A stretch of 64,000 nt of DNA from an uncultured Candidatus Berkelbacteria bacterium (GCA_903834195.1 CAILIB010000003.1:5477-69476), one strand, 5' to 3'; shown: positions 3,601 through 58,297, numbered from the stretch's first letter. Numbers and translations: made by a program. Notes: generated by a model not told the origin, from the letters alone.

Positions 3601-6450
<2,850 letters not shown>

Positions 6451-6466
6451 CGGCGCGAGTTAGGAT

Positions 6467-41714: not shown

Positions 41715-43061
41715 CTAGAGTTCCTTCGACGAGCCTTTTTTCTCTATTCCTAGTGCCTTTAAGAGCTGTTTCAGCTCTTTTTGGTAACCTGTATGTGTGT
41801 ATCCGAGTTGCTCGATTTCTTTTTCGCGACGAGCTTGTTGTTGGACACGTCGTACCTCTCCACCTAGTCCAACTTCACCGATAACACAAAGCTTCTCGTC
41901 GAGTGTTTTGTTTAGTGCTGCAGAAGCAAGTGCTACACACACAGCAGCATCAACAGCCGGATCTTTAATTTTCATACCGCCAACAACGTTCACAAAAACA
42001 TCTTGACTACTTAAATCAATTCCTGCACGACGCTGCAGGACTGCAAGAAGTAGGTTGAGACGATTTAAATCAAACCCCGAGGCAGTTCGACGCGGATATC
42101 CGAACACACTTGGAACTGTAAGCGCCTGAATTTCTACAAGCATTGGACGACTTCCTTCCATGACAGTGGAGAGAATAGAACCAGGTACTTGAACTCGTTC
42201 ACCGAGCAAAAACTGAGCTGGGTTTGTAACTTCTTGGAGACCTTTTTCTCCCATTGCAAGGAGGCCGGTTTCACTAATATCACCAAACCGATTTTTTACT
42301 GCCCGTAATATACGAAGGTCGTGCTGCGAATCTCCTTCTAAGTACAGAACTACATCAACTAAGTGTTCTAGTGTACGAGGCCCTGCAACTGTACCCTCTT
42401 TTGTAATGTGACCTACAAGCACAACTGGAACACCAATTCCTTTAGCGAGTTGTTGAATACGAATTGCAGTCTCGCGGACTTGCACGATACTTCCCGGAGT
42501 AGAGGGGAAAGCTGGATCGTACATAGTCTGAATAGAATCAATAATAACCAAGGCTGGCTTTTCGTTCTCAATTTGTGCAGCAATACTATCTACGTTTGTA
42601 GCTGCAAGTACATGCACCGCATCTGCTTCGGCACCAAGACGCTCGGAACGCAATTTAATTTGCTCAGGAGATTCTTCACCGCTTACATATAACACAACAC
42701 CTTCAACATGCGCTGCAACTTGAAGTAATAATGTACTTTTACCTATTCCTGGATCACCACCCAGTAAAATAACACTTCCTGGGACAATGCCACCACCAAG
42801 TACACGATCAACTTCTCCAACACCAGAGGAGCGCCGTACTAAACGCTCACCTTGTACATCACTCAGCTTCTGAACTTGTTGTGTAGTTTGCCCGCTATAC
42901 CCACCAGTACGTACATTTTTATTTCGCTCTGAACTTGTTGGAACAGAAAACTCTTTTAACGTATTCCACTCTCCACAGTTTGAACAACGCCCTTGCCACT
43001 GCAAGAACTCTTCACCGCAACTATTACAGACGAAAACTGTGGTTGATTTACTTTTAGCCAT
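41715..43061 (-). CDS. radA: DNA repair protein RadA
   Basis: 448 aa with an N-terminal zinc ribbon CNSCGEEFLQWQGRCSNCGEW, Walker A GGDPGIGKSTLLLQ, KNRFG, and a Lon-like C-terminal domain. Confidence 0.95.
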   Translation of the reverse strand: MAKSKSTTVFVCNSCGEEFLQWQGRCSNCGEWNTLKEFSVPTSSERNKNVRTGGYSGQTTQQVQKLSDVQGERLVRRSSGVGEVDRVLGGGIVPGSVILLGGDPGIGKSTLLLQVAAHVEGVVLYVSGEESPEQIKLRSERLGAEADAVHVLAATNVDSIAAQIENEKPALVIIDSIQTMYDPAFPSTPGSIVQVRETAIRIQQLAKGIGVPVVLVGHITKEGTVAGPRTLEHLVDVVLYLEGDSQHDLRILRAVKNRFGDISETGLLAMGEKGLQEVTNPAQFLLGERVQVPGSILSTVMEGSRPMLVEIQALTVPSVFGYPRRTASGFDLNRLNLLLAVLQRRAGIDLSSQDVFVNVVGGMKIKDPAVDAAVCVALASAALNKTLDEKLCVIGEVGLGGEVRRVQQQARREKEIEQLGYTHTGYQKELKQLLKALGIEKKGSSKEL

Positions 43062-43121
43062 ACAGTTACTATACCGAACAAATTACGAAGTTCAACACTA
43101 GTACAGTGTGGAGTAGCAAAA

Positions 43122-44768
43122 CTAATCTAGAGAAATAATATTTTGAATATGGCAAACCGGAGAAGAAACGTCCCGCCACGTTTCACATTCAACTGTATAC
43201 ACTACTCGGTACATTCCCCCATCTTGAACATCTCTATCCCCTTGCTGAAATGCAATTGCTTTTTTTCGTACCGATCCTTCAGTTAAAAACCCACTCAAGT
43301 GTTGTCCAGTACTCCCAACTTTTCGCAGCCCATTAAGAGTGCACACAGTCTCAAAAAGAGGTCGTGAAAACCCAATTCCAAATGGCTCCATCTCTTCAAG
43401 TGCAGTGCATAAATCAAGGGTTACATCACTCAAATTAAGTTCTAATTCAGCCGTTCGTTCAGCAGCACGTCGTAAATCTGCCAATGTAAACCCTTGCGCC
43501 TGAACATATGTAGATAACTTTGTTCGAAACTGATCGATATCCCCGATAAAGGTAAGTCCTGCAGCTTTTGTATGCCCACCAAACCGCTCCAATTCATCCT
43601 TACTCGCCTCTAACATCTCAACAGCATGAACTGCACCCACACTCCGTACTGAACCCTTAATTACCCCATCTTCTGGTGCCAAAGCGATAACAGGACGTTT
43701 ATATCTATCCATAAGCCTACTCGCAACTAAGCCTATTACCCCTGTTGACCACGTCTCGTGAAACACAACTAATACAAGTGCATCGTCCATTTCACTTGCC
43801 TGTCGCTCTGCTTCGAGTAGATGTGTATCAACTAATGCTTGGCGCTCAGTGTTTTGGTCTGTAAGATGTCGTGCAAGTTGAGCAGCTTGCCGAGCATCAC
43901 TCGTAATTAAAAGCTGCACTGCTGCATTTACGCCTGCAACTAATTCATTGTGCATTCGTGAAGGAGCATTAATGCGCGGAGCAATCTTAAATCCAACATC
44001 ACCTGCGGATACTGTATCAATTTGAACTCCAGCAGACTCAACTAATGCGCGTATTCCCACATTTTTGCTTTTTTGTAACACGTGTAACCCATATCGAGCA
44101 AATAAGCGATTTTCACCTACAAGAGGAACCATATCCGCAATTGTAGAAATTGCCACTAAATCCAGCTCCCATTTCAACTGCTGCACATCTTCACTTCGTG
44201 AGACATACAACTGCTCAACTACCTTCCAGGATAAGCCGCAGGCACACATCTCTTTAAACTCGTACGGGCAATTTTCTTGCTTAGGATTAATAATTGCAAG
44301 TGCACGATCGGCTATCTCACCAACTTGTGGTTCATGGTGATCAATTACAATGACATCAATTCCTGCATCTGCAATTTGAGCAATTTCCGCCTTTGCAACC
44401 GTCCCATTATCCACCGTGATAAGTAACCTAGGTGCACGAGAAATAACCTCAGCAACTATTACCGAAGTTAACCCATACCCTTGTGCACGACTTGGAATAA
44501 GTGGCACAACTTTCATGCCCAATGTACTCAAAGTTCGTACAAGTAAGGCTGTTGCTGGCACGCCGTCAGCATCATAATCCCCGAAGATTAAAACCTCTTC
44601 AGCTAACTCAATAGCCTTATTTAACCGAGAAACAACGACATCCATACCAAGCATTTTGGATGCATCATACTGATCTTTGTAAAAATCAGGTCGCAAAAAA
44701 TGCTCCTGTTCAGCAAGTGGTATTCCACGACCAACTAAGATCTTTTCTAATATCGGATTAACTGACAT
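43122..44768 (-). CDS. recJ: Single-stranded-DNA-specific exonuclease RecJ
   Basis: 548 aa with DHH-family motifs IFGDYDADGV, TVDNG and VIVIDHHEP, plus a DHHA1-like region GGHTKAAG. Confidence 0.9.
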   Translation of the reverse strand: MSVNPILEKILVGRGIPLAEQEHFLRPDFYKDQYDASKMLGMDVVVSRLNKAIELAEEVLIFGDYDADGVPATALLVRTLSTLGMKVVPLIPSRAQGYGLTSVIVAEVISRAPRLLITVDNGTVAKAEIAQIADAGIDVIVIDHHEPQVGEIADRALAIINPKQENCPYEFKEMCACGLSWKVVEQLYVSRSEDVQQLKWELDLVAISTIADMVPLVGENRLFARYGLHVLQKSKNVGIRALVESAGVQIDTVSAGDVGFKIAPRINAPSRMHNELVAGVNAAVQLLITSDARQAAQLARHLTDQNTERQALVDTHLLEAERQASEMDDALVLVVFHETWSTGVIGLVASRLMDRYKRPVIALAPEDGVIKGSVRSVGAVHAVEMLEASKDELERFGGHTKAAGLTFIGDIDQFRTKLSTYVQAQGFTLADLRRAAERTAELELNLSDVTLDLCTALEEMEPFGIGFSRPLFETVCTLNGLRKVGSTGQHLSGFLTEGSVRKKAIAFQQGDRDVQDGGMYRVVYTVECETWRDVSSPVCHIQNIISLD

Positions 44769-45573
44769 ACGCCCAACGATCTATGCGCAGGTCGACGTGA
44801 GAACTGGCAGTATTAACCTTATTCTGATGCACAAGACGTGTAAGGTTACGCACTTGCACACCCGCATCTCCCAACGTATTAAACTGAACTTGCATCCCCT
44901 CTTTTGTGAAGACAGTTAAATCATATGTACTATTTCCAACTTGAGCACTTGTTACATGTACACCTGGTAAATCTGTCAGAAAATCAGTTTGCAAAACTTC
45001 TATAAACGAGATGAATGTACGACCAACTAATGGCTTACCCAGTGTTACGTTAATATTTTTAGTATCAACTACATGCGGTAAACTGGCGATTTTGGCCCCT
45101 GCCGAACTTGCCACATCTGGAAGAGTGTCTTGAGTGTATTGAGTAAAAGCAATTCCCTGACTATCAACCAGAATCGACATACCATTACTTACCCACACAA
45201 AGGCAGGTTGTCGCTCAGTTATTACAAGACGAAGCGTATCTGGAATACCGCGTAGAATACTTACATTCGTAACGAGTGGATCCTGCGCAATGCCTTTGAG
45301 AATTGTATCTTTAGGCAAGAACCAAATACTTCCACCGAGTGGAACTGACTTACTAAGTTCATCAGGATTGCTGAGAATTACACCTTGAATATCAACTTTT
45401 CGTACTCGAAAAAAGGGACCAAAAAATACTGCATAGAGTAGGAGAATTGCACCAATACCAAGTGATACTTGTTTAACTGTACGAAAGAAAAAAGACCAGT
45501 CACGCCGTGGCTTCTGGAGACTACCGTAAATTTTGGGCATTTGACGTACGTAACGTCGAGGTGCGCGTGCCAT
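44758..45573 (-). CDS. ftsQ: Cell division protein FtsQ/DivIB-like
   Basis: 271 aa: a basic N-terminus, one TM helix (GIGAILLLYAVFFGPFF), then a POTRA-like VRKVDIQG. It sits at the end of the dcw cluster. Confidence 0.7.
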   Translation of the reverse strand: MARAPRRYVRQMPKIYGSLQKPRRDWSFFFRTVKQVSLGIGAILLLYAVFFGPFFRVRKVDIQGVILSNPDELSKSVPLGGSIWFLPKDTILKGIAQDPLVTNVSILRGIPDTLRLVITERQPAFVWVSNGMSILVDSQGIAFTQYTQDTLPDVASSAGAKIASLPHVVDTKNINVTLGKPLVGRTFISFIEVLQTDFLTDLPGVHVTSAQVGNSTYDLTVFTKEGMQVQFNTLGDAGVQVRNLTRLVHQNKVNTASSHVDLRIDRWAYVS

Positions 45574-45591
45574 ATACGTATTATACCTTAC

Positions 45592-46545
45592 TCATTCCCA
45601 TAGACCGATGCGTTCAAAGGCAGGGCGTAATTCTGCACCAGTTGCATGCCATGCTGCTTGTTGAATCTGTGTAACCATATTCCACACTGAACTCGCCGAT
45701 GGCTGCACCTTACCTTTTCGAAGGTAATTTCGATTGCGTTTTTCAACATACAATCCATCTACTCTAATCTTGTCGATTCCAGAAGCTGATAAAATTTCTT
45801 CAAGATTTTGATCTGGAAGAGGTAAAAAGAGTGGACCAAACACTTCACCTTTTGGAACTGATCGCGCCAACCCTTTTACTTGCTCAGTGATACGTCGAAT
45901 CAACTCATCACTCCTCACTGAGGTTAACTGGATATGAGCATTCAAAATGACAGGTCGAGGCTCATCAATTGAACGATCAACTCGTAGCTGCTGTAATTTC
46001 GTCAGACCACCATCTTTTGTTAACCAATCAGCTTTATACCGTACCATTGTTACATCAACTTTCATTTTTGTTGGAGGCATAAGCATAGTTACATAACGCA
46101 CTGACGAAAGTATATTCTGGCCATTTGCACCAGCATTCGTATATAATGCTCCCCCAATAGTTCCCCCCACTCCGTAGAGTGAAGTTAACCCGCCAAAACC
46201 CTGACTAGCTGCTGACGTAATAAAACGCTGTAATTGCATTCCACTATCAACAATCATCTGGCTATGGTCTGCGGTCATAACGCAATTTGATGAAAGGTTG
46301 TGGATAACTAAACCAGGAAAACCGCCATCAGAAAATAAAACTCCCTCTCCAGCACCTACTACTACATAGGGAACTTTCGCGTCAATTGCACCTTTTACAG
46401 CTTCTATAAGTTCAATGGCATCGTGAGCTATGGTGAAAAAATCTGTAGTTCCTCCAACACTCAGTGCATTAAATTGAGCCAAGGATACATTTTCCTCAAC
46501 CTGCGATATTCGTCGTAATAATTCAGCACGAACCCCACTCACCAT
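45592..46545 (-). CDS. MurB-like paralog with degenerate catalytic/FAD motifs
   Basis: 317 aa, clearly MurB-fold (ALSVGGTTDFF, GFPGLVIH, GFGGLTSLYGVGGTIGGALYTNAGANGQ). However, GxGSN is replaced by GAGEG, and the GS.F.N serine block is replaced by GEVFGPLF. Confidence 0.7.
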   Translation of the reverse strand: MVSGVRAELLRRISQVEENVSLAQFNALSVGGTTDFFTIAHDAIELIEAVKGAIDAKVPYVVVGAGEGVLFSDGGFPGLVIHNLSSNCVMTADHSQMIVDSGMQLQRFITSAASQGFGGLTSLYGVGGTIGGALYTNAGANGQNILSSVRYVTMLMPPTKMKVDVTMVRYKADWLTKDGGLTKLQQLRVDRSIDEPRPVILNAHIQLTSVRSDELIRRITEQVKGLARSVPKGEVFGPLFLPLPDQNLEEILSASGIDKIRVDGLYVEKRNRNYLRKGKVQPSASSVWNMVTQIQQAAWHATGAELRPAFERIGLWE

Positions 46546-47600
46546 ACAAATCGTTCACCATTTTCAGTAATACACTCGGCTTCAGGATGCAGTGTCACAC
46601 CATACTTTTCCTTAACGGTTTCTCGAACTTGCTGAACGAGTGCAATAAAATCAGCCTGAGTGCCCGTGCCTAAATTTGTAATAAAATTTCCATGTGTTGG
46701 ATACACCTGCATACCTCCATACTGCCTCCCTAATTGACCAGAAAATTCTACATAATACCCTGCAGCACCTGAAGTCTCACCAGCAGGTATTTCAGAAGGT
46801 TCCAAATTCTGAAATACAGAACCACAGTTTGCAGCTATTGGCTGAATAGTATTTTTAGTTTTTGTCCAATCTAAATACTGCGTCTTCGCAGCTGCTATTT
46901 GTTCTGTAGGAGCTGCAAATAATCGTAGAATTACTGAGGTAATTACCTCAGTACTTGTGTGAAATCGACTATAATCATAGCCAAATTCGGATTCATTTAC
47001 TGGGTAGAACCGAGTTTCGCCTTTTCCATCTCGTGACACACAGTTAACACCAACTATTACTTCTGATAGTAAATGTTTTTCACCATGAATATTATTAAAT
47101 ACTGCCCCACCTACGTTACAAGGAATTCGTGCAAACCAATGCAATCCAGTTAACCCTTGATTCAAAGACCACATAACAGCCTGTCCCCAGGCAACTCCTG
47201 CACCTAGTTCCACATATGTCGGAGCGCCTTCAGACACAACTTTTCCTTCTAACGCCAGATACTTTTCTCCTTCTCCACGAGCATATCTTGGTGCAGCATT
47301 ATATGGTTCAATTTTATCATACTTTTTCATACTCACTTCATCGCTCGATAAGACAGTGCACAAAGTAAGAGCAGGTTGAATTACCAACCCATCCATACCA
47401 GCATCGGCAAAAAGTATATCACTACCACCACCAATTATTCTGGTTTTAATATCTGCTTCTTGGGCCAGAATAAGATCTTCCTGCAATTCTTCGATGGTTG
47501 TTGGTCGAGAAAAATAGGCAATTTCACCACCAACTTTAATACTCGTCAACTGACTTCCGAGTACACCTTTTTTCCAACGCTCAGGAATTACTGTCGCCAT
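46539..47600 (-). CDS. murB: UDP-N-acetylenolpyruvoylglucosamine reductase
   Basis: 353 aa with SIKVGGEIAYF, IGGGSDILF, ARIPCNVGGAVFNNIHG, CGSVFQN, HGNFITN and LHPEAE. Confidence 0.85.
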   Translation of the reverse strand: MATVIPERWKKGVLGSQLTSIKVGGEIAYFSRPTTIEELQEDLILAQEADIKTRIIGGGSDILFADAGMDGLVIQPALTLCTVLSSDEVSMKKYDKIEPYNAAPRYARGEGEKYLALEGKVVSEGAPTYVELGAGVAWGQAVMWSLNQGLTGLHWFARIPCNVGGAVFNNIHGEKHLLSEVIVGVNCVSRDGKGETRFYPVNESEFGYDYSRFHTSTEVITSVILRLFAAPTEQIAAAKTQYLDWTKTKNTIQPIAANCGSVFQNLEPSEIPAGETSGAAGYYVEFSGQLGRQYGGMQVYPTHGNFITNLGTGTQADFIALVQQVRETVKEKYGVTLHPEAECITENGERFVW

Positions 47601-48907
47601 TTTTCCAAAAGGTTACTTATACTACCCGCACCAACATTAATAATAACACCTGAAACTTTACTTACTTCTTTAACATACTCACCCACCTCATCAAGGGTAT
47701 GCAAGGTAGTTAGTTTAAATGAATGTTTTCCAGTCTCAATTTCTTTCGCAACGTCATCAATTGTAACGTCTATATCATCCTCACGACCAGGGACGTGAAA
47801 TATTGGTGCAAGTACTAGCTCAGTAGGAGCCGGATCATCAAAAGCTCGGGCAAAATCTTTGAGCAATGCCTGAGTGCGTGCTTTTTGATGCGGTTGAAAT
47901 ATCACAGTCACATGTTCAGTTGGAAATTTTTCCCGGACACCTTTCATAAGTGCCTGAATTTCGCGTGGATGATGAGCATAATCATCATATAACTCAGCCT
48001 TATTCCAAATACCAAGGTACTCAAACCGTCGCCCGACACCTGGAAAACTATTTAGTGCTTTCTTGATTAGATCATGTGAAATACCCAACTCATGGGCAAT
48101 GCGTGCAGCAGCAGTTGCATTTAATAGATTATGTAGACCTGGCTGCGGAACTGTAACCCCAGGCCAGAGATGAAATTCATCATACCAACGAAACTTGTAT
48201 GAAAAACTCTTACACACTTTCCGTATACGGGCATCACGTCCGTACGCCACAACCAACCCAGTTTTCCCAGGCAGATTTCGCAGGAACCGTTTATACGACT
48301 GCTCAATTTCGGGAAGACCCTTAGTGTAATAATCAGTATGATCCAGATCAATATTTAGGATAACCGCCATTTGCGGTGTAAATCGATGAAAGGAACGATC
48401 GTATTCATCTGCTTCTAATACAAGATACTTACTTTGACCAATCTTTGTAGTGTTATTCCATGCACGAATATTTCCTCCCACAAAAACTGTTGGATCGAGT
48501 CCTGCTTGATCAAGTATCCAGCCCACCATAGCTGTTGTTGTAGTTTTTCCGTGTGCGCCAGAAATACAAATAGTGAACTTTTCTCGAGTTAGCTTACCTA
48601 TCCACTCAGAGCGTTTAACAATTGAAATGCCACGGTTACGCAAGGTTTCAACTTCAGCAAAACTTGGCGAATTAGGTGTAGCTGCAGCCGTCATTACAGC
48701 TTCAGTTACAGTCGTTGGAATTTTCTCAGGATCACTACCTATGTGAATGTTAGCTCCTAACGCTTGAAGTCGAGCAACATTAGGCGAAAATGATGCATCA
48801 CTTCCCGAAACATCCCACCCCATTTGTAGTGCGTAATCGGCAATCCAAACCATACCAACGCCACCAGCTCCAACCAAATAAATGTGAGGTTTTTGAGTTT
48901 CTATCAT
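47588..48907 (-). CDS. murC: UDP-N-acetylmuramate--L-alanine ligase
   Basis: 439 aa with IYLVGAGGVGMVWIADY and ISGAHGKTTTTAM, plus the Mur ligase middle and C-terminal domains. Confidence 0.9.
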   Translation of the reverse strand: MIETQKPHIYLVGAGGVGMVWIADYALQMGWDVSGSDASFSPNVARLQALGANIHIGSDPEKIPTTVTEAVMTAAATPNSPSFAEVETLRNRGISIVKRSEWIGKLTREKFTICISGAHGKTTTTAMVGWILDQAGLDPTVFVGGNIRAWNNTTKIGQSKYLVLEADEYDRSFHRFTPQMAVILNIDLDHTDYYTKGLPEIEQSYKRFLRNLPGKTGLVVAYGRDARIRKVCKSFSYKFRWYDEFHLWPGVTVPQPGLHNLLNATAAARIAHELGISHDLIKKALNSFPGVGRRFEYLGIWNKAELYDDYAHHPREIQALMKGVREKFPTEHVTVIFQPHQKARTQALLKDFARAFDDPAPTELVLAPIFHVPGREDDIDVTIDDVAKEIETGKHSFKLTTLHTLDEVGEYVKEVSKVSGVIINVGAGSISNLLEKWRQ

Positions 48908-50040
48908 GTTGGTATGCTACCAGAAAGCATGAATTTCGCCATTTCTCGCGCAGCATTCGGAAAATCAAATTGACCAATTGCATCACGCAACGCAGCTTGC
49001 GCAGTCTGGTTTTCAAGAATGTACATAATTTGATGTGCTAATTCTACTGAAGTTCCAGAAACTTCATCAAAAACCTGTACAGCACCAGCTTTTTCGAACA
49101 CAGCAGCATTGGCTTGCTGATGGTTTTGGGCTGAGGTTGAAAGTGGTACAAGGATAACTGCCGCCCGCACCGCAGCAAGTTCAGCAATTGTTCCTCCTGC
49201 CCTACTTACCACAACATCACTCTGCTGAAACAAGGCCGGCAACTCATCACTTACAAAAGGAGCAATCCATAATTTTTCACGCACATGAACTGGTAATTCT
49301 GACGCAGCATGAGAAAATTCGGCATAATCTCGCTGGCCTGTAATGTGCACAATATTCATTTTTTCGAGCAGTGTTTCCCAGGAGTTCTGAATATGCACAT
49401 TTAGTCGATGACCACCCTGACTACCTCCAGTAACCGTCAACAAGGGTGTTTTAACAGTGCGACCATCCAGCTCAATATTTTCATGGCGATGATCAGCATA
49501 AAATTCAGCTCGGACTGGCTGACCAACTTGTTGCAGCTTCGCTTTTGGCAAATTCTTATATGAATCAACCGGATAGGCAGTGAAAATACGTCGCGCATAC
49601 CGTGCGGTCATTTTATTTGCCAAACCTGGAATTACATCAGTTTCATGAGTAACTAAGGGAATTCGAAGAGCTGTTGCCATAATTGATACCGGCACAGCTA
49701 CATGCCCACCAGCAGCAAAAATATAATCTGGTCGCATTGTTCGAACGAGCTTTCCAGCCTCTCCCAACCCTTTCACAAACTTAGAAAATTCCTTAACATG
49801 CTTCCAGGTAAGGTATCGATTCAACTTTCCTGAAGACACTTCGTACCGGTCAAATTTCAATTCACTCTCGCGAATAAGCGGAGATTGCACATCACTTGAA
49901 AGGCCAGCATAGGCACAGTTAACATCCAAGCTTTCTTCCTTGCCCAGAGCCAATACTTGTTCCATGACAGCAAGACACTTGCTGATATGGCCAGAAGTTC
50001 CACCTCCAACGAATAAGATCTTTATACTACTTTTGTGCAT
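48904..50040 (-). CDS. murG: Undecaprenyldiphospho-muramoylpentapeptide beta-N-acetylglucosaminyltransferase
   Basis: 378 aa with ILFVGGGTSGH, TGGSQGG and SRAGGTIAELAA. Confidence 0.9.
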   Translation of the reverse strand: MHKSSIKILFVGGGTSGHISKCLAVMEQVLALGKEESLDVNCAYAGLSSDVQSPLIRESELKFDRYEVSSGKLNRYLTWKHVKEFSKFVKGLGEAGKLVRTMRPDYIFAAGGHVAVPVSIMATALRIPLVTHETDVIPGLANKMTARYARRIFTAYPVDSYKNLPKAKLQQVGQPVRAEFYADHRHENIELDGRTVKTPLLTVTGGSQGGHRLNVHIQNSWETLLEKMNIVHITGQRDYAEFSHAASELPVHVREKLWIAPFVSDELPALFQQSDVVVSRAGGTIAELAAVRAAVILVPLSTSAQNHQQANAAVFEKAGAVQVFDEVSGTSVELAHQIMYILENQTAQAALRDAIGQFDFPNAAREMAKFMLSGSIPT

Positions 50041-51181
50041 GCTGTGCTCCGCGTCGTCGTTTCTGTTGTGGGACTACAATCGCATCTTTATCGCCAGTAT
50101 AGCGGGAGATATTCAAGAGCACACCCATTGCAGCAAGTGAGATCATTAAGTTCGTTCCACCATAACTGATGAACGGCAGTGGAACACCTACGAGTGGAAC
50201 AATTCCAAGCATTGATGCCAAATTAATAAACGCTTGGAATCCGATCCAGGTAGTAATTCCAACTGCGAGTAAGCGCCCAAACGGATCCTGAGTTTGTGCG
50301 GCAATTCTGTAGCCTCGATAAATAATCAGCGAAAATACTGCCACAATTGCAATCCCAACCACCAATCCAAGCTCTTCAATAATAATTGCAAAAATTGAGT
50401 CAGTATGAGGCTCAGGTAAGAACAACCGCTTTTGAGAACTTGCACCGTATCCAACTCCAAACCAACCGCCCGATCCAATTGCAATCGAAATATTTTGAAT
50501 ATGATATTTCACCGCATCTGACCCCCCGGAAGGGTCAAGAAACGTTAAGATACGTGCCCGACGATACGGCACAGCAAGAATTCCACCCATTGCCACTACA
50601 GATGTTCCCAGTCCAACAACAAATTGCTGAAACGACATTCCAGCAACAACAAACACCGCGATTACAGAAGCCAACATAATACTTAATGTGCCAAAGTCAG
50701 GCTCCATAAGCATGAGGATTGAGATAACTGCCAACATCCCAAGAAATGGGAAAAAAGTAGCGCGAAAACTCTTTACCTGATCTTGCATTTTCGTGAACCA
50801 AGCACAGATATAGACCAAAAAACTAAACTTCGCTAATTCAGAAGGCTGGAAGGTTTGACCTAAAAATGTGATCCAGCGATGTGCGCCATTTACTGACCCC
50901 TTAGTAAAAAGAAAGACACTTAACAGTAAAAGAATCGTCGTGATCATTAATGCTGTAGCCCATTTCTTCCACGATCGATAGTCAATATTTGAAGTAGTTA
51001 TAAGAGCAATAATTCCAACTACTGCCCAAATAAGCTGACGTTTAAAAAAGTACTTTGGATCGTTAAAGTCAGTGTATCCCACAATCACTGAAGCAGAGTA
51101 AATCATTACAATACCAAAAAGTACTGTGGAAATAGTCGCTATTAACAGAATTAAATCTTGTCGATGTTTTCCAAGTGCCAT
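50027..51181 (-). CDS. ftsW: Peptidoglycan glycosyltransferase FtsW (SEDS family)
   Basis: A polytopic SEDS pattern (QPSELAK, PEPHTDSIFAII, GVPLPFISYGGT). The ATG at 51181 (MALGKHRQD) lies 1 nt after the murD stop and is preferred over the track start 51259. Confidence 0.85.
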   Translation of the reverse strand: MALGKHRQDLILLIATISTVLFGIVMIYSASVIVGYTDFNDPKYFFKRQLIWAVVGIIALITTSNIDYRSWKKWATALMITTILLLLSVFLFTKGSVNGAHRWITFLGQTFQPSELAKFSFLVYICAWFTKMQDQVKSFRATFFPFLGMLAVISILMLMEPDFGTLSIMLASVIAVFVVAGMSFQQFVVGLGTSVVAMGGILAVPYRRARILTFLDPSGGSDAVKYHIQNISIAIGSGGWFGVGYGASSQKRLFLPEPHTDSIFAIIIEELGLVVGIAIVAVFSLIIYRGYRIAAQTQDPFGRLLAVGITTWIGFQAFINLASMLGIVPLVGVPLPFISYGGTNLMISLAAMGVLLNISRYTGDKDAIVVPQQKRRRGAQHAQK

Positions 51182-51182
51182 A

Positions 51183-52601
51183 CTACGCCCCGTACCGTTT
51201 ATGAATGGCTTCAGCAAAGGCTTCGCCACGAAGTTTATAGTTTGCAAATGGTGTATCACTTGCTGCAGCTGGCGCTAGCAATACTACATCTCCACCTTTC
51301 AAATGGGTATGAATGCCACTCAAAATTGTTTCCATAACCGGGTTTTGTGCTAGTGGTAGTAATACAAGCGAACTACTCGTTTTCTTTATTTCCTTCTCTA
51401 GAGCTTTTCGGAGAGCAGCTGTAACGGCACCAGGGAGAAAACTAACTGTAGTGCACCGTGCTGCAATATGTTTAGCAAGCTCTTCATGAGTTTGTCCTTT
51501 ATCTTTTCCACCAACAAGCAAGTGAATTCGACGACCTTCAAACGCCTCCATAGCTACGACACATGACTCATTTGTAGTTGCGATACTATCATCGTAAAAT
51601 GACACCCCACCCTTTTCAGCAACGAGTGATAGTCGATGCTCTAGTCCGGTAAATCCAGTTACAACTTTGCTCATTACTAGAGGTGAAACATGGAAATACG
51701 CACCGAGAATTGCTGCCGGTAAAATATTTTCGATATTATGTGCTCCTAATAATTTTCGCCCAGTAATTTCAAAGGATTCTATGCCACTACCAATTGCCAC
51801 AAACACGATTTCCTTACCTTCTAGGTTTTCAACCCAGGCAGATTGCTGCCGTGGCTGATGACGTGAGTATTGAAATAACTTCCCTTGCACATTTTGAAGG
51901 AACAGTGCCTGCGTAGCGTACTCGGCATTCACAATTGCAATATCATTTGGTCGCTGATTTGTGAGTATACGTGCTTTTGCGTGCCGATATTCTTCCAGAT
52001 TCTTGTGATGATCTAAGTGATCCTGAGTTACGTGTAGTACTACCGCAATGTGCGGACTTAACCGTACATCCTCAAGTTGAAAACTTGAGAGTTCGAGCAA
52101 GACAATATCATCCTCTTGCAGGTCATCGAGAAATGAAAATGGGTCGACACCAATATTACCCGCCAAAAACGTTCGACCAGCTTTATACCCGCGTGAGAGA
52201 ATTTCATACGCAAGTGTTGAAGTGGTTCCCTTACCTTTGGTTCCAGTAATACCAATTGTAATTGCAGGGCAAAGTTCAAGAAACAACTGAGTTTGTGAAG
52301 AAAGCTGCGCACCTTTTGAAACCGCCTGAACCAGTCTCGGTTCTGTACTTGAAATCACAGGAGCTCGAAATAGCACGTCAAAACCCGAGAGATCAGCAAG
52401 GATGTCCTGACGAATATCCCAAACAACCTGATCACCAAACTCAGCATATTGAGGAGCAAATGTATCACGCACTGCAGCATCACGATCCCTGATTGTCAGT
52501 GAGATACCATTGCGAAGCAAAAATGTAGTGAGCGCACGATTATTTACCCCGTACCCGAGAATCACTACCGACTTTTGACGCAATGATGTTACATCACTCA
52601 T
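51183..52601 (-). CDS. murD: UDP-N-acetylmuramoylalanine--D-glutamate ligase
   Basis: 472 aa with VVILGYGVNNRAL and ITGTKGKGTTSTL, plus the Mur ligase domains. Confidence 0.9.
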   Translation of the reverse strand: MSDVTSLRQKSVVILGYGVNNRALTTFLLRNGISLTIRDRDAAVRDTFAPQYAEFGDQVVWDIRQDILADLSGFDVLFRAPVISSTEPRLVQAVSKGAQLSSQTQLFLELCPAITIGITGTKGKGTTSTLAYEILSRGYKAGRTFLAGNIGVDPFSFLDDLQEDDIVLLELSSFQLEDVRLSPHIAVVLHVTQDHLDHHKNLEEYRHAKARILTNQRPNDIAIVNAEYATQALFLQNVQGKLFQYSRHQPRQQSAWVENLEGKEIVFVAIGSGIESFEITGRKLLGAHNIENILPAAILGAYFHVSPLVMSKVVTGFTGLEHRLSLVAEKGGVSFYDDSIATTNESCVVAMEAFEGRRIHLLVGGKDKGQTHEELAKHIAARCTTVSFLPGAVTAALRKALEKEIKKTSSSLVLLPLAQNPVMETILSGIHTHLKGGDVVLLAPAAASDTPFANYKLRGEAFAEAIHKRYGA

Positions 52602-52630
52602 GGAACTCCCCTAACTGATACTAATTTACC

Positions 52631-53671
52631 CTACTGAAGCAACGCAAGCATTAACCCGATAGAACATCCGACCGCTGCGATAACCCAAAACCGCATCGTA
52701 ACACGTGGCTCAGGCCACCCAAGTGCTTCAAAGTGGTGGTGAATCGGTGCCACCAAAAATACCTTTCTATGAAATACTCTCTTAGAAAAGATTTGAATCA
52801 TGGTTGCGATACCTTCGATGTACGGAATCAAGAGTAAAAATGGCAATACGGCAACCGAATTAGTCAAAAACGCGAGCACCGGCAATGTCATACCCAGAGC
52901 CATACTTCCTGTGTCTCCCATGAAGAATCGAGCAGGATGAATATTAAACCAGAGAAACGAGAGTAGTGCTCCAAACATACATGCACAGAAGATTGCGAGA
53001 TGAACCTTTCCCTGTGTTAACGCAATAAACATAAAGACACCAAAGGCGGGCATTGAAACACCGGCAGCTAAGCCATCTAAGCCATCGGTTTGATTCATAC
53101 TAAACGCAGTGAAAATAACCGTTGCAATGAAAAGTGGAATATAGAGCCAGCCAATCGTAAACGTGCCAAAGTGTGGAATGTGGAGCGTATTAAACCCAAG
53201 CTTGGAATAGAACCACCAAGCTCCAATTGCAGCAACGGCAACATACACCCATAATTTATATTTCAATCGTAATCCCCCGCCATTGGAGCCTTTTCCAAGT
53301 ACATTCAGGATGTCATCTACAGCTCCAATTACACCAGCCGAAACAAGTGCAAAGAGAGGCAACCAAGTTTCTGCGCGATCAAGGTTGAAGATGGCTGTAA
53401 GTACCGCGGTAGTTACCCAGAAAAGTACTCCACCCATCGTAGGAGTACCTTCTTTGTCTTTATGAAGTTTGGTAAAAATTGGCGCCGCATTTCCATCACT
53501 CCCATGCTGACGCAACCGTTTACCAATACGGTTCTTGAAGAGGAAGTTTGTTAATAATGGCGCAATTAAGAACGCAATCACAAAAGAGACGATCACGTAG
53601 ATTGCAACCTGTTTAATATCTTCTGTTTGAATACTTACTGCAACACTCATAAAATTGATTACTCTTGCCAC
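52631..53671 (-). CDS. mraY: Phospho-N-acetylmuramoyl-pentapeptide transferase
   Basis: 346 aa with KEGTPTMGG, NQTDGLDGLA, FMGDTGS and APIHHHFE. The start could alternatively be the ATG at 53650. Confidence 0.9.
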   Translation of the reverse strand: MARVINFMSVAVSIQTEDIKQVAIYVIVSFVIAFLIAPLLTNFLFKNRIGKRLRQHGSDGNAAPIFTKLHKDKEGTPTMGGVLFWVTTAVLTAIFNLDRAETWLPLFALVSAGVIGAVDDILNVLGKGSNGGGLRLKYKLWVYVAVAAIGAWWFYSKLGFNTLHIPHFGTFTIGWLYIPLFIATVIFTAFSMNQTDGLDGLAAGVSMPAFGVFMFIALTQGKVHLAIFCACMFGALLSFLWFNIHPARFFMGDTGSMALGMTLPVLAFLTNSVAVLPFLLLIPYIEGIATMIQIFSKRVFHRKVFLVAPIHHHFEALGWPEPRVTMRFWVIAAVGCSIGLMLALLQ

Positions 53672-54942
53672 TCATTACCCTGTCGGACCAGGAGTTTTTC
53701 AGCTTGTTCTGGATGTTCCATTAATTCTTTCACAATTCGCTCTAAGCGCATGCCATTCTGAGATGCTTTCAGGTATACGACGTCATTTTTCTGGACAACC
53801 TGTTTCAACTGACTTACTACATTCTCTGGCGCTGGAAATCCAATCATTTTTGTAGCCGGCATTCCTGCTTCTTTTGCTGCAGCAAGCATGGTTTGAGAAA
53901 ATTGACCAACTGCAACAAGTGAATCTACGGTTCGTGCAGCAGCAGCGCCAATCTCCGCATGTGCTGCTTCAGCATATGAACCCAACTCATTCATTGTACC
54001 AAGAATTGCCACTGTTCGTCGGCCATTTGCAAACGGCTTCAACATCTTTACACCAGCAATTACAGCTTCAGGTGAGGAATTCGCAGTATCATCAATTATA
54101 GTTACTTCTCGAGCTCCTTTAATGATCCGTCCCCGACCAGCAGGTATTGAATACGCTTTTAGTCCAGCTAGTACATTCTTTTCAGTCAGACCTTCTCGAG
54201 CTCCAACCGCAACCGCAGCAATAAGTGGGTAGAGTTGTTGATCACCAATAATTGCAACATGAGCTTCGATAGCTTTGCTCGAAATTTTGTCCTCCAAACA
54301 AGTAAACGAGCACTTCAAACCTGTTCCATCTCTACTTTCTACTTTTCCTCGTACTGCCAACTTCTTTTGACTCTTTACCCCAAAATACAAGATTGATTGT
54401 GTAGGCTTTAGATGTTGTAGCGGCACATCATCTGCATTAACTACTACATACCCGTCTTTATCAACATACTTTAAGAGAGAACTGATCTCAGCAATAACTG
54501 CTTCTTCAGTTTTGTAGAGTTCCATATGCGCCATTCCTCCAGTCGTAAATACTGCTGCCTTTATAGGAAAATGCTTAGCCAAAAAATCTAAGTCACCTAC
54601 TGTATCAGAAGAAAACTCTAGTACGTAGTAGGGTTGAGTTGTGAACTTTGGAAATTGTGGAAACAGTGCTTTGAATAACACTGTAATCCAGCGACCCTTA
54701 GTTTTCGCACGATCTGCAAAACCTAACAATGAAAGTGGAATACCAGTATCCGTTGCCATGTTTCCCGCAGTTTTTACAACTGGCTTCCCAGTTTGTTCCA
54801 ACATAGCCGCAATCGCTTCCTTGGTAGAAGTTTTACCGACACTTCCAGTTACCACAATCACATATGGATTATCTTGCTTCACCCTAATTCGAACCGCGCG
54901 CCAGAGAATAGCCAGAACAAAACGGCGGAGTACAGCTTTCAT
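53659..54942 (-). CDS. murF: UDP-N-acetylmuramoyl-tripeptide--D-alanyl-D-alanine ligase (MurF-like)
   Basis: 427 aa with VIVVTGSVGKTSTKE and DDTANSSPEA, which is the MurF-type DDSYNANP block rather than the MurE-type DYAHTPD. Confidence 0.75.
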   Translation of the reverse strand: MKAVLRRFVLAILWRAVRIRVKQDNPYVIVVTGSVGKTSTKEAIAAMLEQTGKPVVKTAGNMATDTGIPLSLLGFADRAKTKGRWITVLFKALFPQFPKFTTQPYYVLEFSSDTVGDLDFLAKHFPIKAAVFTTGGMAHMELYKTEEAVIAEISSLLKYVDKDGYVVVNADDVPLQHLKPTQSILYFGVKSQKKLAVRGKVESRDGTGLKCSFTCLEDKISSKAIEAHVAIIGDQQLYPLIAAVAVGAREGLTEKNVLAGLKAYSIPAGRGRIIKGAREVTIIDDTANSSPEAVIAGVKMLKPFANGRRTVAILGTMNELGSYAEAAHAEIGAAAARTVDSLVAVGQFSQTMLAAAKEAGMPATKMIGFPAPENVVSQLKQVVQKNDVVYLKASQNGMRLERIVKELMEHPEQAEKLLVRQGNEWQE

Positions 54943-54947
54943 ATTTT

Positions 54948-56756
54948 CTATTGATTAGTTGGCGGTATTTGGTAGTAGTGTAACAGGTATTGAGCTATAC
55001 GACCAAATAATGGCACTGCAGTACTTTCAGCATACATACCAACTTTTGCAAGATTTGGCTGATCAATTTTCACCAACATGATAAACTTCGGATCATCAGT
55101 TGGACCCATTCCAATAAACGAATGATTATAGGCATCAGGCAAGTAACCACCATTAACTGAGTCAGGCACCTGAGCAGTTCCTGTTTTTCCACCAACTTTA
55201 TATCCTGGTACTCCTGCCCGAGTGTGGTTTGTTGCTACAACTTGAACAAGCATGTCTCGCACTTGTGCAGCAGTCTCAGGTTTAATAATTTGTTGACTAT
55301 GCGTCGGCTGAACCAGTTGCCACGGACTTGAGTCATCCTGCTGCACTGCATGTACCATATGTGGCATAACTTCTTTTCCATCATTCGCAATTGCACTATA
55401 AGCAGTCAAAATCTGAATTGGCGTGACACTAATTCCTTGTCCAAAAGTTGTAGTTGCCCGCTGCACATCTCCCCACTGACTAAGAGGAACCACTCTACCA
55501 CTTGCCTCACCAGTTAAATCAATTCCAGTTTGAGACCCAAAACCGTACATTTTCAGATAATCTGACAACGTTTGGTTTCCGAGTTTATTACCTACCCAAA
55601 CCATTGCCACGTTATCTGAATTTACCAACACCTTCGTCATTGTTTCAGTACCATACGAACGACGTAACGCAGTTTCAATCTTATACCCATTCACAGTTAC
55701 AGACTCATCAAACGTATTTGAGGTATCAGGAGTAACAAGTCCCTGATCGATTGCTGCAGCCATTACAACTGGTTTGAAAATACTTCCAGGCTCCCAGTTA
55801 GAACTTACAGCCGGATTCGTAAATAAGTTAATACTTTGTTTACCAACATTACGAAAATCGTTTGGATCATAGCTCGGATAATTTGCCAGTGCACGAATCT
55901 CACCTGTTTTCGGATCCATAATTATGACTGACCCTCCAACAGCTTCATCTTTTTGAACTTCAGCCGCTAATTCCTGCTCAGCGTCATACTGAATATTGCG
56001 ATCTATAGAAAGTTGATAATTAGAACCATCTTTTTCTTGAACTACTTCTTGTTGAGCTAGTACACTTCCCTGACTATCGCGCTCTAGCTGCACCTGACCA
56101 GCATACCCCTTCAGCTCAGTATCATATTGTCCTTCAATGCCATACTGACCCTGATCCTTATCATTTACAAAACCAAGAGTTTGCCCCAAGAAATTACCTT
56201 CTGGATATACCCGTTTATAACTTCGTGTAAAGAAAATTCCGTTCGTAAAGTAAATTGTATTACCTTGGGTCGGATCAAAGCTTGGCACTACTGGAGAAGA
56301 CTTCGAAAGTTGTTTTCGTAGTGCATTTACTTGCGTAATAATATTCTGCACTTGATCCTTACTCAGGTTAGTAGCCAGAGGATCAGCATATGCAACTATG
56401 TTTCCCTGTGCATTCTTCTTCTGCAATGTTGCGAGAATCGAAGCTTCATCTGTATTTGTTAAACTCGCCAATAGATGTGCAAATTCTGGTTTATTTAAGA
56501 CATCGCGAGGTGTAACAGAGAGAGAAAAAATTTCCAAACTTTCAGCTGCAGCAATGGTAGTTCCTGCAGCAGCATCCTGAACATAAATAGTACCCCGCTT
56601 CGGCTGAATAGCCCGCAGAGTATCTTGCTGCTTCTTTGCAAGTGCCACAAAATTACTGTGCTGTAAAACAGTAATTTGAAACGTCCTCCCTACCAATATG
56701 ACGGCAAGGATGAAGAGTGCGCCGATAAGCAATCCGATGCGCGCTCGTGTAGACAT
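54948..56756 (-). CDS. ftsI: Class B penicillin-binding protein (FtsI/PBP2-type transpeptidase)
   Basis: 602 aa with an N-terminal TM anchor, the SxxK motif GSIFKP, the SxN motif NSDN, and the KTG motif GGKTGTAQ. Confidence 0.9.
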   Translation of the reverse strand: MSTRARIGLLIGALFILAVILVGRTFQITVLQHSNFVALAKKQQDTLRAIQPKRGTIYVQDAAAGTTIAAAESLEIFSLSVTPRDVLNKPEFAHLLASLTNTDEASILATLQKKNAQGNIVAYADPLATNLSKDQVQNIITQVNALRKQLSKSSPVVPSFDPTQGNTIYFTNGIFFTRSYKRVYPEGNFLGQTLGFVNDKDQGQYGIEGQYDTELKGYAGQVQLERDSQGSVLAQQEVVQEKDGSNYQLSIDRNIQYDAEQELAAEVQKDEAVGGSVIIMDPKTGEIRALANYPSYDPNDFRNVGKQSINLFTNPAVSSNWEPGSIFKPVVMAAAIDQGLVTPDTSNTFDESVTVNGYKIETALRRSYGTETMTKVLVNSDNVAMVWVGNKLGNQTLSDYLKMYGFGSQTGIDLTGEASGRVVPLSQWGDVQRATTTFGQGISVTPIQILTAYSAIANDGKEVMPHMVHAVQQDDSSPWQLVQPTHSQQIIKPETAAQVRDMLVQVVATNHTRAGVPGYKVGGKTGTAQVPDSVNGGYLPDAYNHSFIGMGPTDDPKFIMLVKIDQPNLAKVGMYAESTAVPLFGRIAQYLLHYYQIPPTNQ

Positions 56757-56759
56757 AGG

Positions 56760-57146
56760 TTATGGACGCGCGGTGGAAACTCCCGCGACATCGCCCTTAT
56801 CTACGTAGGTTGGTTCACTAGATGACATTGGTACCATTTGTGCTTTGGCAGGATCTTGCGAAATCGCATTAATTGCCTGATACCGTTCAGCTTGAAGCTG
56901 AAGATTGGTATTTTCTTGATCAACTTGACTAATATTATTACGCAAGGCGCTATCTGTATACGGACTTGTAGCACTCTTTGTGTTACTCAACATAACGAGC
57001 GCTAGAATAGCTAATACAGCTAGTCCAAAAAATTTAGCAGTGGTTGGACCAAACGTTACGCGTTTTTGCGTAGTACGCATTGGCGCGCGAGCAACCGTGC
57101 GCTTTGAAATAGTGTACCCAGTATTGCGGGAATATCGTGCCCCCAT
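56760..57146 (-). CDS. FtsL/DivIC-like small bitopic division protein
   Basis: 128 aa: a basic N-terminus, one TM helix (FFGLAVLAILALVMLS), then a short coiled coil (QENTNLQLQAERYQAI). It occupies the position between mraZ and ftsI. Confidence 0.5.
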   Translation of the reverse strand: MGARYSRNTGYTISKRTVARAPMRTTQKRVTFGPTTAKFFGLAVLAILALVMLSNTKSATSPYTDSALRNNISQVDQENTNLQLQAERYQAINAISQDPAKAQMVPMSSSEPTYVDKGDVAGVSTARP

Positions 57147-57165
57147 GTAATGCTCCTTTAGGCGG

Positions 57166-57597
57166 CTAGATGCCGATTTCTTTCAGTGTTTGCGCAAATT
57201 CTTCGGTAGTTTGATCGATTTGACCTTGATAGGTTTCCCAGGTCTTTTCGTCCCAAACTTCCACGTGATCGAACAGTCCAGCGAGAATTGCTTGCTTTCC
57301 AAGGTTGGCGTACTGACGTAGGTAAGCTGGTAGTACAACACGACCCAGTTTATCTAACTCAACATCCACGGCCCCAGCTAAGGTTTGACGCACGTAGGCG
57401 CGTGTAGACGCCTGACTTTGCGGTAACTTAGCAAGCTTTTCTGCAATCTCCTGCCAGGCAGACAGCGGGTAGAATTTGAGTGAGCCGTCGAACCCCTTGG
57501 TTATAACGGCTCCCTCAGCCAATTTCGATCGCCATTTAACAGGCAACTGCAGTCGTCCTTTCTCGTCGATACTGTGTCGGTGCTCGCCGATGAACAT
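57166..57597 (-). CDS. mraZ: Transcriptional regulator MraZ
   Basis: The true start is the ATG at 57597 (MFIGEHRHSIDEKGRLQLPVKWR). The second half repeats the DKLGRVVLP motif. The track's 57699 start would read through the operator and promoter. Confidence 0.9.
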   Translation of the reverse strand: MFIGEHRHSIDEKGRLQLPVKWRSKLAEGAVITKGFDGSLKFYPLSAWQEIAEKLAKLPQSQASTRAYVRQTLAGAVDVELDKLGRVVLPAYLRQYANLGKQAILAGLFDHVEVWDEKTWETYQGQIDQTTEEFAQTLKEIGI

Positions 57598-57620
57598 ATG
57601 CAATTGATTATTATTTGAGC

Positions 57621-57650
57621 GATCCACTTTGCCCCACTTCAGACCACTTG
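57621..57650 (-). promoter_or_regulatory. MraZ operator: three direct AAGTGG boxes at exact 10-bp spacing
   Basis: The minus strand reads cAAGTGGtctgAAGTGGggcaAAGTGGatc (plus-strand ccactt at 57624, 57634 and 57644). The boxes lie 25-50 nt upstream of the mraZ ATG. Confidence 0.75.
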
Positions 57651-57654
57651 TTGT

Positions 57655-57684
57655 TATTATGGAGCTGCTTTCCAGGTGTGTCAA
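57655..57684 (-). promoter_or_regulatory. Sigma-70-type promoter of the dcw operon
   Basis: The minus strand has TTGACA (57684-57679), an 18-nt spacer, then ATAATA (57660-57655), immediately upstream of the MraZ boxes. Confidence 0.6.
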
Positions 57685-57721
57685 CGCTAGAACATACACC
57701 GAACACCCACCAATGAAGAAA

Positions 57722-57747
57722 TTAAAAGAGGGCCGCCGGAGCGACCC
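57722..57747 (-). terminator. Intrinsic terminator separating the upstream ORFan from the mraZ promoter
   Basis: The minus strand has gggtcgc-tccg-gcggccc (7-bp stem including one G-U pair) followed by tcttttaatttctt. Confidence 0.65.
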
Positions 57748-57765
57748 ACTTCCGATTAGATCGAA

Positions 57766-58236: not shown

Positions 58237-58297
58237 TTAAATCACCCCCAGATGTGACATGGAGTAAAATACCAGAAAATCAGAGTAAGTACAGTCC

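Follow-up and report, generated by a model that had tools for sequence, protein, structure and literature searches.

MurB, which reduces enolpyruvyl-UDP-GlcNAc, is usually regarded as an essential enzyme of peptidoglycan synthesis that is present in one copy, works by a uniform mechanism and can be targeted by antibiotics. A 64,000-nucleotide stretch of DNA from an uncultured Candidatus Berkelbacteria bacterium (GCA_903834195.1, CAILIB010000003.1:5477-69476), referred to here as the window, carries two adjacent genes for proteins of the MurB fold, murB-A and murB-L, between murC and ftsQ of its division and cell wall (dcw) cluster. Our analysis favors functional displacement, to which we assign a probability of roughly 0.6. 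According to this proposal, the resident murB, represented today by murB-L, is catalytically dead yet retained as a pseudoenzyme, and the divergent MurB-A carries out catalysis.

The closest structurally described relatives are the type-II MurB enzymes of Staphylococcus aureus (1HSK, 4PYT) and Listeria monocytogenes (3TX1), whose three-domain fold both window proteins share over their full length. Relative to these enzymes, MurB-A keeps the equivalents of Ser229, Glu325, Lys217, Asn233, His288 and the GxGS loop; it differs in having Asp instead of Arg159, an insertion of 43 aa, the motifs ARIPC and NIHGEKH, and NCBIfam scores below the cut-offs. MurB-L, by the same comparison, lacks Arg159, Ser229, Glu325, Lys217, Asn233, the Ser-Asn pair of the FAD loop and any match to MurB_C. 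The closest active relative of MurB-L is the single-copy MurB of other Patescibacteria, whose gene occupies the same slot and which shares lineage-specific residues with MurB-L. Unlike MurB-L, it retains every catalytic and cofactor motif, and no second murB was found alongside its gene within about 6 kb per side in most loci.

Two further systems offer partial parallels. In Bacillus subtilis, the dcw order is murG-murB-divIB, with ddl located elsewhere. As in the window, the B. subtilis murB lies directly upstream of the ftsQ/divIB homologue; however, B. subtilis has one active murB, whereas the window has two copies, the ftsQ-adjacent one being catalytically dead. The title of Real and Henriques (2006; reference 20 in PMC8871954) states that the position of murB in this cluster matters for growth and sporulation. 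The second parallel comes from the trypanosomatid prozymes: PMC3663545 and PMC5201418 describe AdoMetDC and deoxyhypusine synthase as enzymes in which a dead paralogue accompanies a catalytically impaired one. The likeness lies in a dead paralogue kept under selection beside an atypical active one. The difference is that a heteromer and activation would be hypothetical for the present pair and that the A-type protein apparently stands alone in other genomes.

A sequence-only reading that preceded this work described two adjacent genes, overlapping by 7 nt, that both encode MurB-fold proteins. Both open reading frames (ORFs) lie at exactly the positions given there, and every motif quoted in that reading is present in the translations: GGGSDILF, CGSVFQN, HGNFITN and LHPEAE in MurB-A, and SVGGTTDFF, GLTSLYGVGGTIGGALYTNAGANG, GAGEG and GEVFGPLF in MurB-L. 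Sequence profiles recognize the two proteins unequally. MurB-A matches Pfam FAD_binding_4 and MurB_C, both above their cut-offs. MurB-L matches FAD_binding_4 only, and it does not pass the NCBIfam models, scoring 100 bits against PRK13905 (cut-off 259) and 64.6 bits against TIGR00179 (cut-off 144.5), with a match to residues 14-163 only. AlphaFold2 (AF2) models were built with family alignments and compared by Foldseek against the Protein Data Bank (PDB). The MurB-L model is very confident, with a predicted local distance difference test score (pLDDT) of 94.5 and a predicted template modeling score (pTM) of 0.91. It aligns with 9dtk, 4pyt and 1hsk over its full length (~317-320 columns) with template modeling (TM) scores of 0.82-0.88; target-normalized scores against these three and 3tx1 are 0.83-0.88. 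The MurB-A model has a pLDDT of 91.5 and target-normalized TM scores of 0.85-0.87 against 1hsk, 4pyt and 3tx1, or 0.80-0.87 when 9dtk is included. The top PDB matches of both proteins are MurB structures only. The models thus support the shared fold that had been claimed, and they indicate that MurB-L is predicted to have the complete three-domain MurB fold, including the substrate domain that the sequence profiles miss.

The active sites were examined in an alignment of 26 canonical MurBs, 15 single-copy Patescibacteria MurBs, 25 A-type proteins and 25 L-type proteins, using the numbering of E. coli MurB (MG1655). In the known mechanism, the enolpyruvyl carboxylate is held by Arg159 and Glu325 and the diphosphate by Lys217 and Asn233, while Ser229 serves as the general acid (PMC12844806, citing Benson et al. 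1997). Arginine occupies position 159 in all 26 canonical and all 15 single-copy Patescibacteria proteins, is replaced by Asp throughout the A-type (25/25), and is found in none of the 25 L-type proteins. Position 325 is Glu in every canonical (26/26), single-copy (15/15) and A-type (25/25) sequence and in no L-type sequence (0/25). At position 229, the first three groups have Ser or Cys, whereas all 25 L-type proteins have Pro; across the wider triad-less group, the residue is Q, N, E, D, H, Y or K. Lys217 (as Lys or Arg) and Asn233 are likewise invariant in the first three groups and absent or variable in the L-type. In MurB-L of the window, Gly180, Pro238 and Ala309 stand at the positions of the catalytic Arg, Ser and Glu, and the FAD-pyrophosphate loop GxGSN reads GAGEG. 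The canonical Ser and Asn of this loop are not fixed in the L-core family either, where position 50 is Glu in seven members, Ser in seven, Arg in three and Thr in two, and position 51 is Ser in nine, Gly in seven, Lys in three and Ala in two. MurB-L does retain the loop glycines and the second motif, G-x-x-G-G-A.

The possibility that catalytic residues persist at shifted positions was also considered. A phmmer alignment to 4pyt pairs Arg188 of MurB-L with the catalytic Arg. This candidate was rejected: family members have R, Q or K at this position, which falls within helix 183-190, and a family-anchored alignment through a conserved [ST]-K-L motif, common to the single-copy genes, sets Gly180 at the Arg159 position, just before that helix. 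No alignment brings back Ser229 or Glu325. The degeneration is wider than the sequence-only reading had listed: besides Ser229 and the GxGSN loop, it extends to Arg159, Lys217, Asn233 and Glu325. Judged from these residues, MurB-L cannot act as a MurB by the known mechanism. It combines a homologous fold, lost catalytic residues and an adjacent paralogue of the active type, MurB-A, which together define a pseudoenzyme.

Comparison with related loci identifies which of the two copies is the resident. In 15 of 25 loci (L008-L018, L020, L023-L025), a single canonical murB lies between murC and ftsQ-recJ-radA. The orthology of this slot is anchored by recJ and radA, which are syntenic in all related loci. 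The single-copy genes have all of the canonical motifs (GxGSN, YR[ST]S, AGS-F-[KR]-NP, HANF and LEEEIEYIGQW), and no second murB was found beside any of the 15 within about 6 kb per side in most loci. Their products are 27-39% identical to MurB-L (127-165 bits) versus 23-27% identical to MurB-A (78-106 bits). MurB-L and the single-copy proteins have in common PY, SQ-VVDSG, W174, Q206 and a C-terminal E-x-I-G-x-W tail, and neighbor-joining trees place MurB-L beside the single-copy genes. The slot synteny, the higher bit scores, and the shared lineage-specific residues and tail indicate that the resident murB gave rise to murB-L and that murB-A is a gene added between murB-L and murC. A recent tandem duplication from A to L was considered and rejected, as the two window proteins share 32% identity over just 76 aa and MurB-L groups with the resident single-copy genes. 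The tandem A-L arrangement recurs in 13 independent loci. In two pairs, L019 and L026, the L copy has kept GQGSN although R159, S229 and E325 are already gone, an earlier, intermediate state of the loss.

These comparisons overturn two points of the sequence-only reading. It had placed the degenerate gene in the slot of ddl. The ddl gene is indeed missing, since E. coli DdlB has no tblastn match in the window, and it is absent from the cluster in the single-copy-murB relatives too. However, those relatives carry a single canonical murB at this place (murC-murB-ftsQ-recJ-radA), so the slot is the native position of murB, and the expectation of ddl there comes from the gene order of E. coli. The polarity is reversed as well: the downstream copy, which had been called a degenerate paralogue, descends from the resident gene, and the upstream copy is the addition.

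Conservation of the L family extends well beyond this genome. A word-indexed search returned 51 homologues of MurB-L with E<=1e-47 and 38-74% identity, the next matches being ordinary MurBs at E>=7e-21. The lengths of these homologues range from 296 to 331 aa, except for one entry of 247 aa (P0048), and in an alignment of 37 of them, 23 columns are invariant and 30 nearly so. When the window is compared with the syntenic loci L001-L007, identity is 41-57% for MurB-L, 38-59% for MurB-A, 35-58% for FtsQ and 42-49% for MurG. When the L profile was run as a hidden Markov model against 1.84 billion cluster representatives, 531 matches reached E<=1e-30; among the 139 new top representatives nearest to the L profile, 70 have none of the three catalytic residues and 21 have one. 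Overall, the triad-less frame is open at about 310-330 codons in >100 clusters that are <50% identical to one another. The intact homologues, the 23 invariant columns and an identity equal to that of MurB-A, FtsQ and MurG all argue that MurB-L is maintained by purifying selection, with no decay. Restriction to a single genome with signs of decay, which the sequence-only reading had named as evidence against its proposal, is thus not what is seen, because the homologues are both widespread and conserved.

The constraint is not uniform along the protein. In 110 triad-less sequences, the columns of domains 1-2 have a mean conservation of 0.465 and those of domain 3 a mean of 0.341; the corresponding values for active Patescibacteria MurBs are 0.530 and 0.542. 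As domain 3 falls below domains 1-2 only in the triad-less set, relaxation is concentrated in the catalytic and substrate domain. The FAD-fold glycines (E. coli G47, G60, G86, G103, G112 and G115) are kept at 0.90-1.00 across the same 110 sequences. Invariants specific to MurB-L (R150, P157, P158, R169, T208, S209, R211, D213 and E214) map to the domain-2 sheet and the helix that follows it, while conservation is lowest in domain 3 and in the loop that faces the flavin. A neighbor-joining tree unites the triad-less sequences in a single group next to the active MurBs of Patescibacteria. A one-genome-per-species scan places the family in Patescibacteria, under the names Candidatus Berkelbacteria, Candidatus Saccharibacteria or Patescibacteria group. 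The only NCBI-named close homologues of the two proteins, P0013 and P0102, come from a 22-kb contig and are both labeled 'FAD-binding protein [Verrucomicrobiae bacterium]'. This contig is probably mis-binned or mislabeled, because the synteny elsewhere is of the Patescibacteria type.

MurB-A is itself unusual. The sequence-only reading had credited the upstream copy with the canonical blocks, and those it quoted are present; nevertheless, Asp209 (in the motif FGYDYS, for YRxS) replaces the catalytic Arg, a 43-aa insertion is present, and NIHGEKH stands where canonical MurBs have N-x-G-A-Y-G. The retained residues are Ser261 (S229), Glu340 (E325), K249 (K217), N265 (N233), H303 (His288) and the GGGSD loop; judged strictly, MurB-A departs from the triad at one of its three residues. 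Within the insertion, Arg105 is invariant in the family and Tyr106 nearly so, although residues 101-120 are modeled with low confidence (pLDDT about 60). These features define a subtype. All 25 A-type sequences have Asp159, the ~43-aa insertion, Arg158 and NIH-G-x-x-H, and keep Ser229 or Cys, Glu325, Lys217, Asn233, His288 and GxGS. Around the invariant Arg158, the motif is ARIPC in the pair-bearing subfamily and ARIPG/S in the others. An invariant arginine of the A-type may stand in for Arg159. The subtype occurs in the window and in L001-L007, L019, L026 and L032-L040. A metagenome scan with the A-family alignment returned mostly ordinary MurBs (one generic pattern), and only L035-L040 from it are A-type.

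Several A-type genes have no L gene next to them. They are found in the arrangement relA-murB-murA in L034 (2085-3107), directly downstream of murC in L038 (4111-5202) and L039 (9965-11071), and in the order Mur ligase-cofD-murC-murB-murA-mraY, with the neighbors identified by Pfam, on a 1.05-Mb contig in L040 (9923-11011). All four have Cys at the Ser229 position, and no second murB, triad-less copy or ftsQ was found near them in the 7-21 kb examined per locus. Because these genes occur without a second murB, the A-type is best described as a putative MurB variant that functions by itself and whose carboxylate site has been rewired. MurB-A is presumed to be the working reductase, a competence suggested by the intact pathway and by the retained Ser, Glu, Lys and Asn.

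Our studies allow a history of the pair to be proposed. A gene for the divergent MurB-A subtype, either an ancient paralogue or one gained by horizontal transfer, would have come between murC and the resident murB, and its product would have taken over the reduction of enolpyruvyl-UDP-GlcNAc. The resident copy would then have lost Arg159, Ser229, Glu325, Lys217 and Asn233 and, in this sub-lineage, the Ser-Asn pair of the FAD loop as well. Purifying selection would nevertheless have preserved it as a protein with all three domains folded, in which the FAD-fold module (domains 1-2) is constrained nearly as much as in active MurBs and domain 3 is relaxed. Most likely, MurB-L keeps a non-catalytic function that was either ancestral to MurB or gained soon after displacement. 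This function would reside in domains 1-2 and could be structural, adaptor-like or regulatory, in precursor synthesis or in division, with MurB-L presumably co-expressed with MurB-A and FtsQ from their overlapping or adjacent frames. Both the existence of this function and its nature are inferred.

Several observations weigh against this history. In three loci, L021 (2854-3834), L022 (6055-7020) and L027 (5965-6972), a triad-less murB lies beside ftsQ, and no A-type gene was found in the 2.8-6 kb examined upstream (L021 is a 5.2-kb contig). The upstream murC of L022 and L027 is full-length and divergent, scoring 168-172 bits versus the murC cut-off of 335. Strict monophyly of the triad-less group is supported in just 27 of 60 neighbor-joining bootstraps. 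The presumed working enzyme, MurB-A, lacks Arg159, as do all A-type members, and falls below the NCBIfam equivalog cut-offs (168.6 bits versus 259 for PRK13905). Moreover, the strongly kept FAD-fold motifs of MurB-L could equally reflect a flavin-dependent activity that persists.

A rival proposal is that MurB-L is neofunctionalized, still binding FAD or an ADP-containing ligand and using new residues for a different redox or binding function. In addition to the fold glycines, the GQGSN retained by early-branching L copies and the invariant polar residues R150, R169, R211, D213 and E214 are consistent with such a role. Against it, domain 3 and the flavin-facing loop show the lowest conservation in the protein. 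The Ser229 position is Pro in the subfamily and varies across the wider triad-less group, which gives no sign of a new catalytic residue shared by all. In the window, the loop is GAGEG, positions 50 and 51 vary in the family, and a Glu at the Ser50 position disfavors phosphate binding. We consider this explanation improbable. A different proposal follows the trypanosomatid precedent (PMC3663545 and PMC5201418): MurB-A, impaired by Asp159, might need to form a heteromer with dead MurB-L for full activity or for stability. The adjacency and overlapping frames of A and L in 13 loci, the absence of the canonical Arg159 from both proteins, and the set of MurB-L invariants in domain 2, which could make an interface, are in line with this proposal. 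What argues against it is that A-type proteins with the same Asp, ARIP and NIHG-x-H occur in L034 and L038-L040 with no L gene in the 7-21 kb examined per locus, which suggests that the A-type works alone, and that triad-less MurBs occur beside ftsQ without an adjacent A copy in L021, L022 and L027. In addition, frame overlaps are common across this compact cluster, so that of murB-A and murB-L is not specific to the pair. Known MurBs are monomeric, with an active site contained in a single chain and not placed between subunits. We regard a heteromer of this kind as unlikely, though it deserves slightly more credence than a new redox function. Regarding the roles suggested in the sequence-only reading, these considerations favor the non-catalytic one and weaken that of a heterodimer partner, given that the A-type occurs without an adjacent degenerate copy.

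Two other explanations are far less probable. One is that MurB-L is a pseudogene in the making, its frame open by chance or for the expression of ftsQ. The loss of all catalytic residues fits this explanation, and the title cited above (PMC8871954, reference 20), in stating that the position of the B. subtilis murB matters, suggests that position or expression effects exist. However, a frame that stays open at full length in >100 clusters, 23 invariant and 30 nearly invariant columns, orthologue identity equal to that of MurB-A, FtsQ and MurG, and a very confident AF2 model are not what decay would leave, and the conservation data effectively refute it. The other, with an equally slight chance, is that MurB-L is still a MurB with shifted residues, as the pairing of Arg188 with the catalytic Arg might suggest, or a substitute for Ddl, as the lack of ddl in the window might. 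The variability of Arg188, its place in a helix and the failure of every alignment to restore Ser229 and Glu325 count against the first, and the absence of ddl from the cluster in relatives with canonical murB counts against the second. Replacement of Ddl was also rejected on the ground that neither protein has an ATP-grasp or Ddl family match and that the MurB fold runs throughout both. Functional displacement accounts best for these data. A stronger form of it, which we put forward tentatively and regard as possible rather than probable, holds that triad-less MurB is a dedicated non-catalytic part of the wall and division machinery of Patescibacteria, kept in a large group of lineages after an Arg-less subtype took over catalysis. 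It might, for instance, be an adaptor that binds flavin or nucleotide and joins cytoplasmic precursor synthesis (MurB-A, MurC) to FtsQ and the divisome, or a redox or nucleotide sensor gating division.

The surrounding cluster has the order mraZ, FtsL-like ORF, ftsI, murF-like, mraY, murD, ftsW, murG, murC, murB-A, murB-L, ftsQ, recJ, radA, all on one strand (Table 1). The overlap of murB-A and murB-L is an arrangement that would permit translational coupling; pairs in related loci overlap by 1-25 nt. Elsewhere in the cluster, reading frames overlap at murC/murB-A (13 nt), murG/murC (4 nt) and ftsQ/recJ (11 nt). The ftsW ORF as listed, beginning with GTG at 51259, shares 77 nt with murD (51183-51259); the real ftsW start is probably further downstream. 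The 128-aa ORF between mraZ and ftsI has no Pfam match and is FtsL-like in position, size and hydrophobic stretch. As with DdlB, tblastn with the E. coli MurE, FtsA, FtsZ and RsmH queries gave no match in the 64-kb window, and scans of the window with tRNA and Rfam models found none. Promoter and terminator scans of positions 43000-58500 yielded nothing usable within the murB pair, where counts were close to the shuffled expectation. The top promoter-like site of the region, TTGACA-17-CATAAT (11/12; 57656-57684, minus strand), lies within the mraZ ORF, in the N-terminal extension of its GTG-started frame. MraZ more likely starts at an internal Met (MFIGEHRH, about 57597), and the site is therefore a candidate promoter of the dcw operon. 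Two related loci have additional genes. L004 carries a GNAT gene (Pfam Acetyltransf_6; 6161-6937), possibly FemAB-like, between murC and murB-A, and a gene for a 180-aa protein (4162-4704) between murG and murC. L033 has a MurT-like gene (Mur_ligase_M and MurT_C; 11090-11215) after radA.

Table 1. Genes of the dcw cluster and diagnostic features of the two MurB-fold proteins, in window coordinates
Feature	Position	Strand	Remarks
mraZ	57166-57699	minus	dcw cluster
FtsL-like ORF	56760-57146	minus	dcw cluster
ftsI	54948-56756	minus	dcw cluster
murF-like ligase	53659-54942	minus	dcw cluster
mraY	52631-53671	minus	dcw cluster
murD	51183-52601	minus	dcw cluster
ftsW	50027-51259	minus	dcw cluster
murG	48904-50040	minus	dcw cluster
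murC	47588-48907	minus	upstream neighbor; TIGR01082, 355 bits, above cut-off; 13-nt overlap with murB-A
murB-A (MurB-A)	46539-47600	minus	353 aa; ORF, FAD_binding_4 and MurB_C
MurB-A insertion, 43 aa, residues 84-126	47223-47351	minus	not in canonical MurBs (alignments)
MurB-A Asp209, at Arg159 position	46974-46976	minus	FGYDYS for YRxS; Asp in 25/25 A-type
murB-A/murB-L overlap, 7 nt	46539-46545	minus	ATGGTGA; murB-L ATG inside murB-A end (TGA)
murB-L (MurB-L)	45592-46545	minus	317 aa; ORF, FAD_binding_4 match, MurB-fold model
MurB-L GAGEG, residues 64-68	46342-46356	minus	replaces FAD-pyrophosphate loop GxGSN (alignment)
MurB-L Gly180, at Arg159 position	46006-46008	minus	alignment; just before helix 183-190 (AF2 secondary structure)
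MurB-L Pro238, at Ser229 position	45832-45834	minus	alignment
MurB-L Ala309, at Glu325 position	45619-45621	minus	alignment
ftsQ	44758-45573	minus	downstream neighbor; Pfam POTRA_1 and FtsQ_DivIB_C
recJ	43122-44768	minus	downstream gene, syntenic in all related loci
radA	41715-43061	minus	downstream gene, syntenic in all related loci

For Patescibacteria, or the candidate phyla radiation, a literature search found no paper on a dead paralogue of MurB or on a MurB subtype with Asp159. Pseudoenzyme paralogues are already known as a phenomenon; the dead MurB and the Asp159 subtype in Patescibacteria are apparently new. The pair does not resolve a long-standing open question. It does bring together two departures from the accepted picture of MurB: a conserved dead MurB inside the dcw cluster of many Patescibacteria, and a subtype with Asp in place of the catalytic Arg. 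Both proteins currently go by the names "UDP-N-acetylmuramate dehydrogenase" or "FAD-binding protein", so that pathway reconstructions of these reduced genomes can count the wrong gene. The A-type is a naturally occurring test case for the stabilization of the enolate intermediate without Arg159, and the pseudo-MurB hints at a second, non-enzymatic role of MurB.

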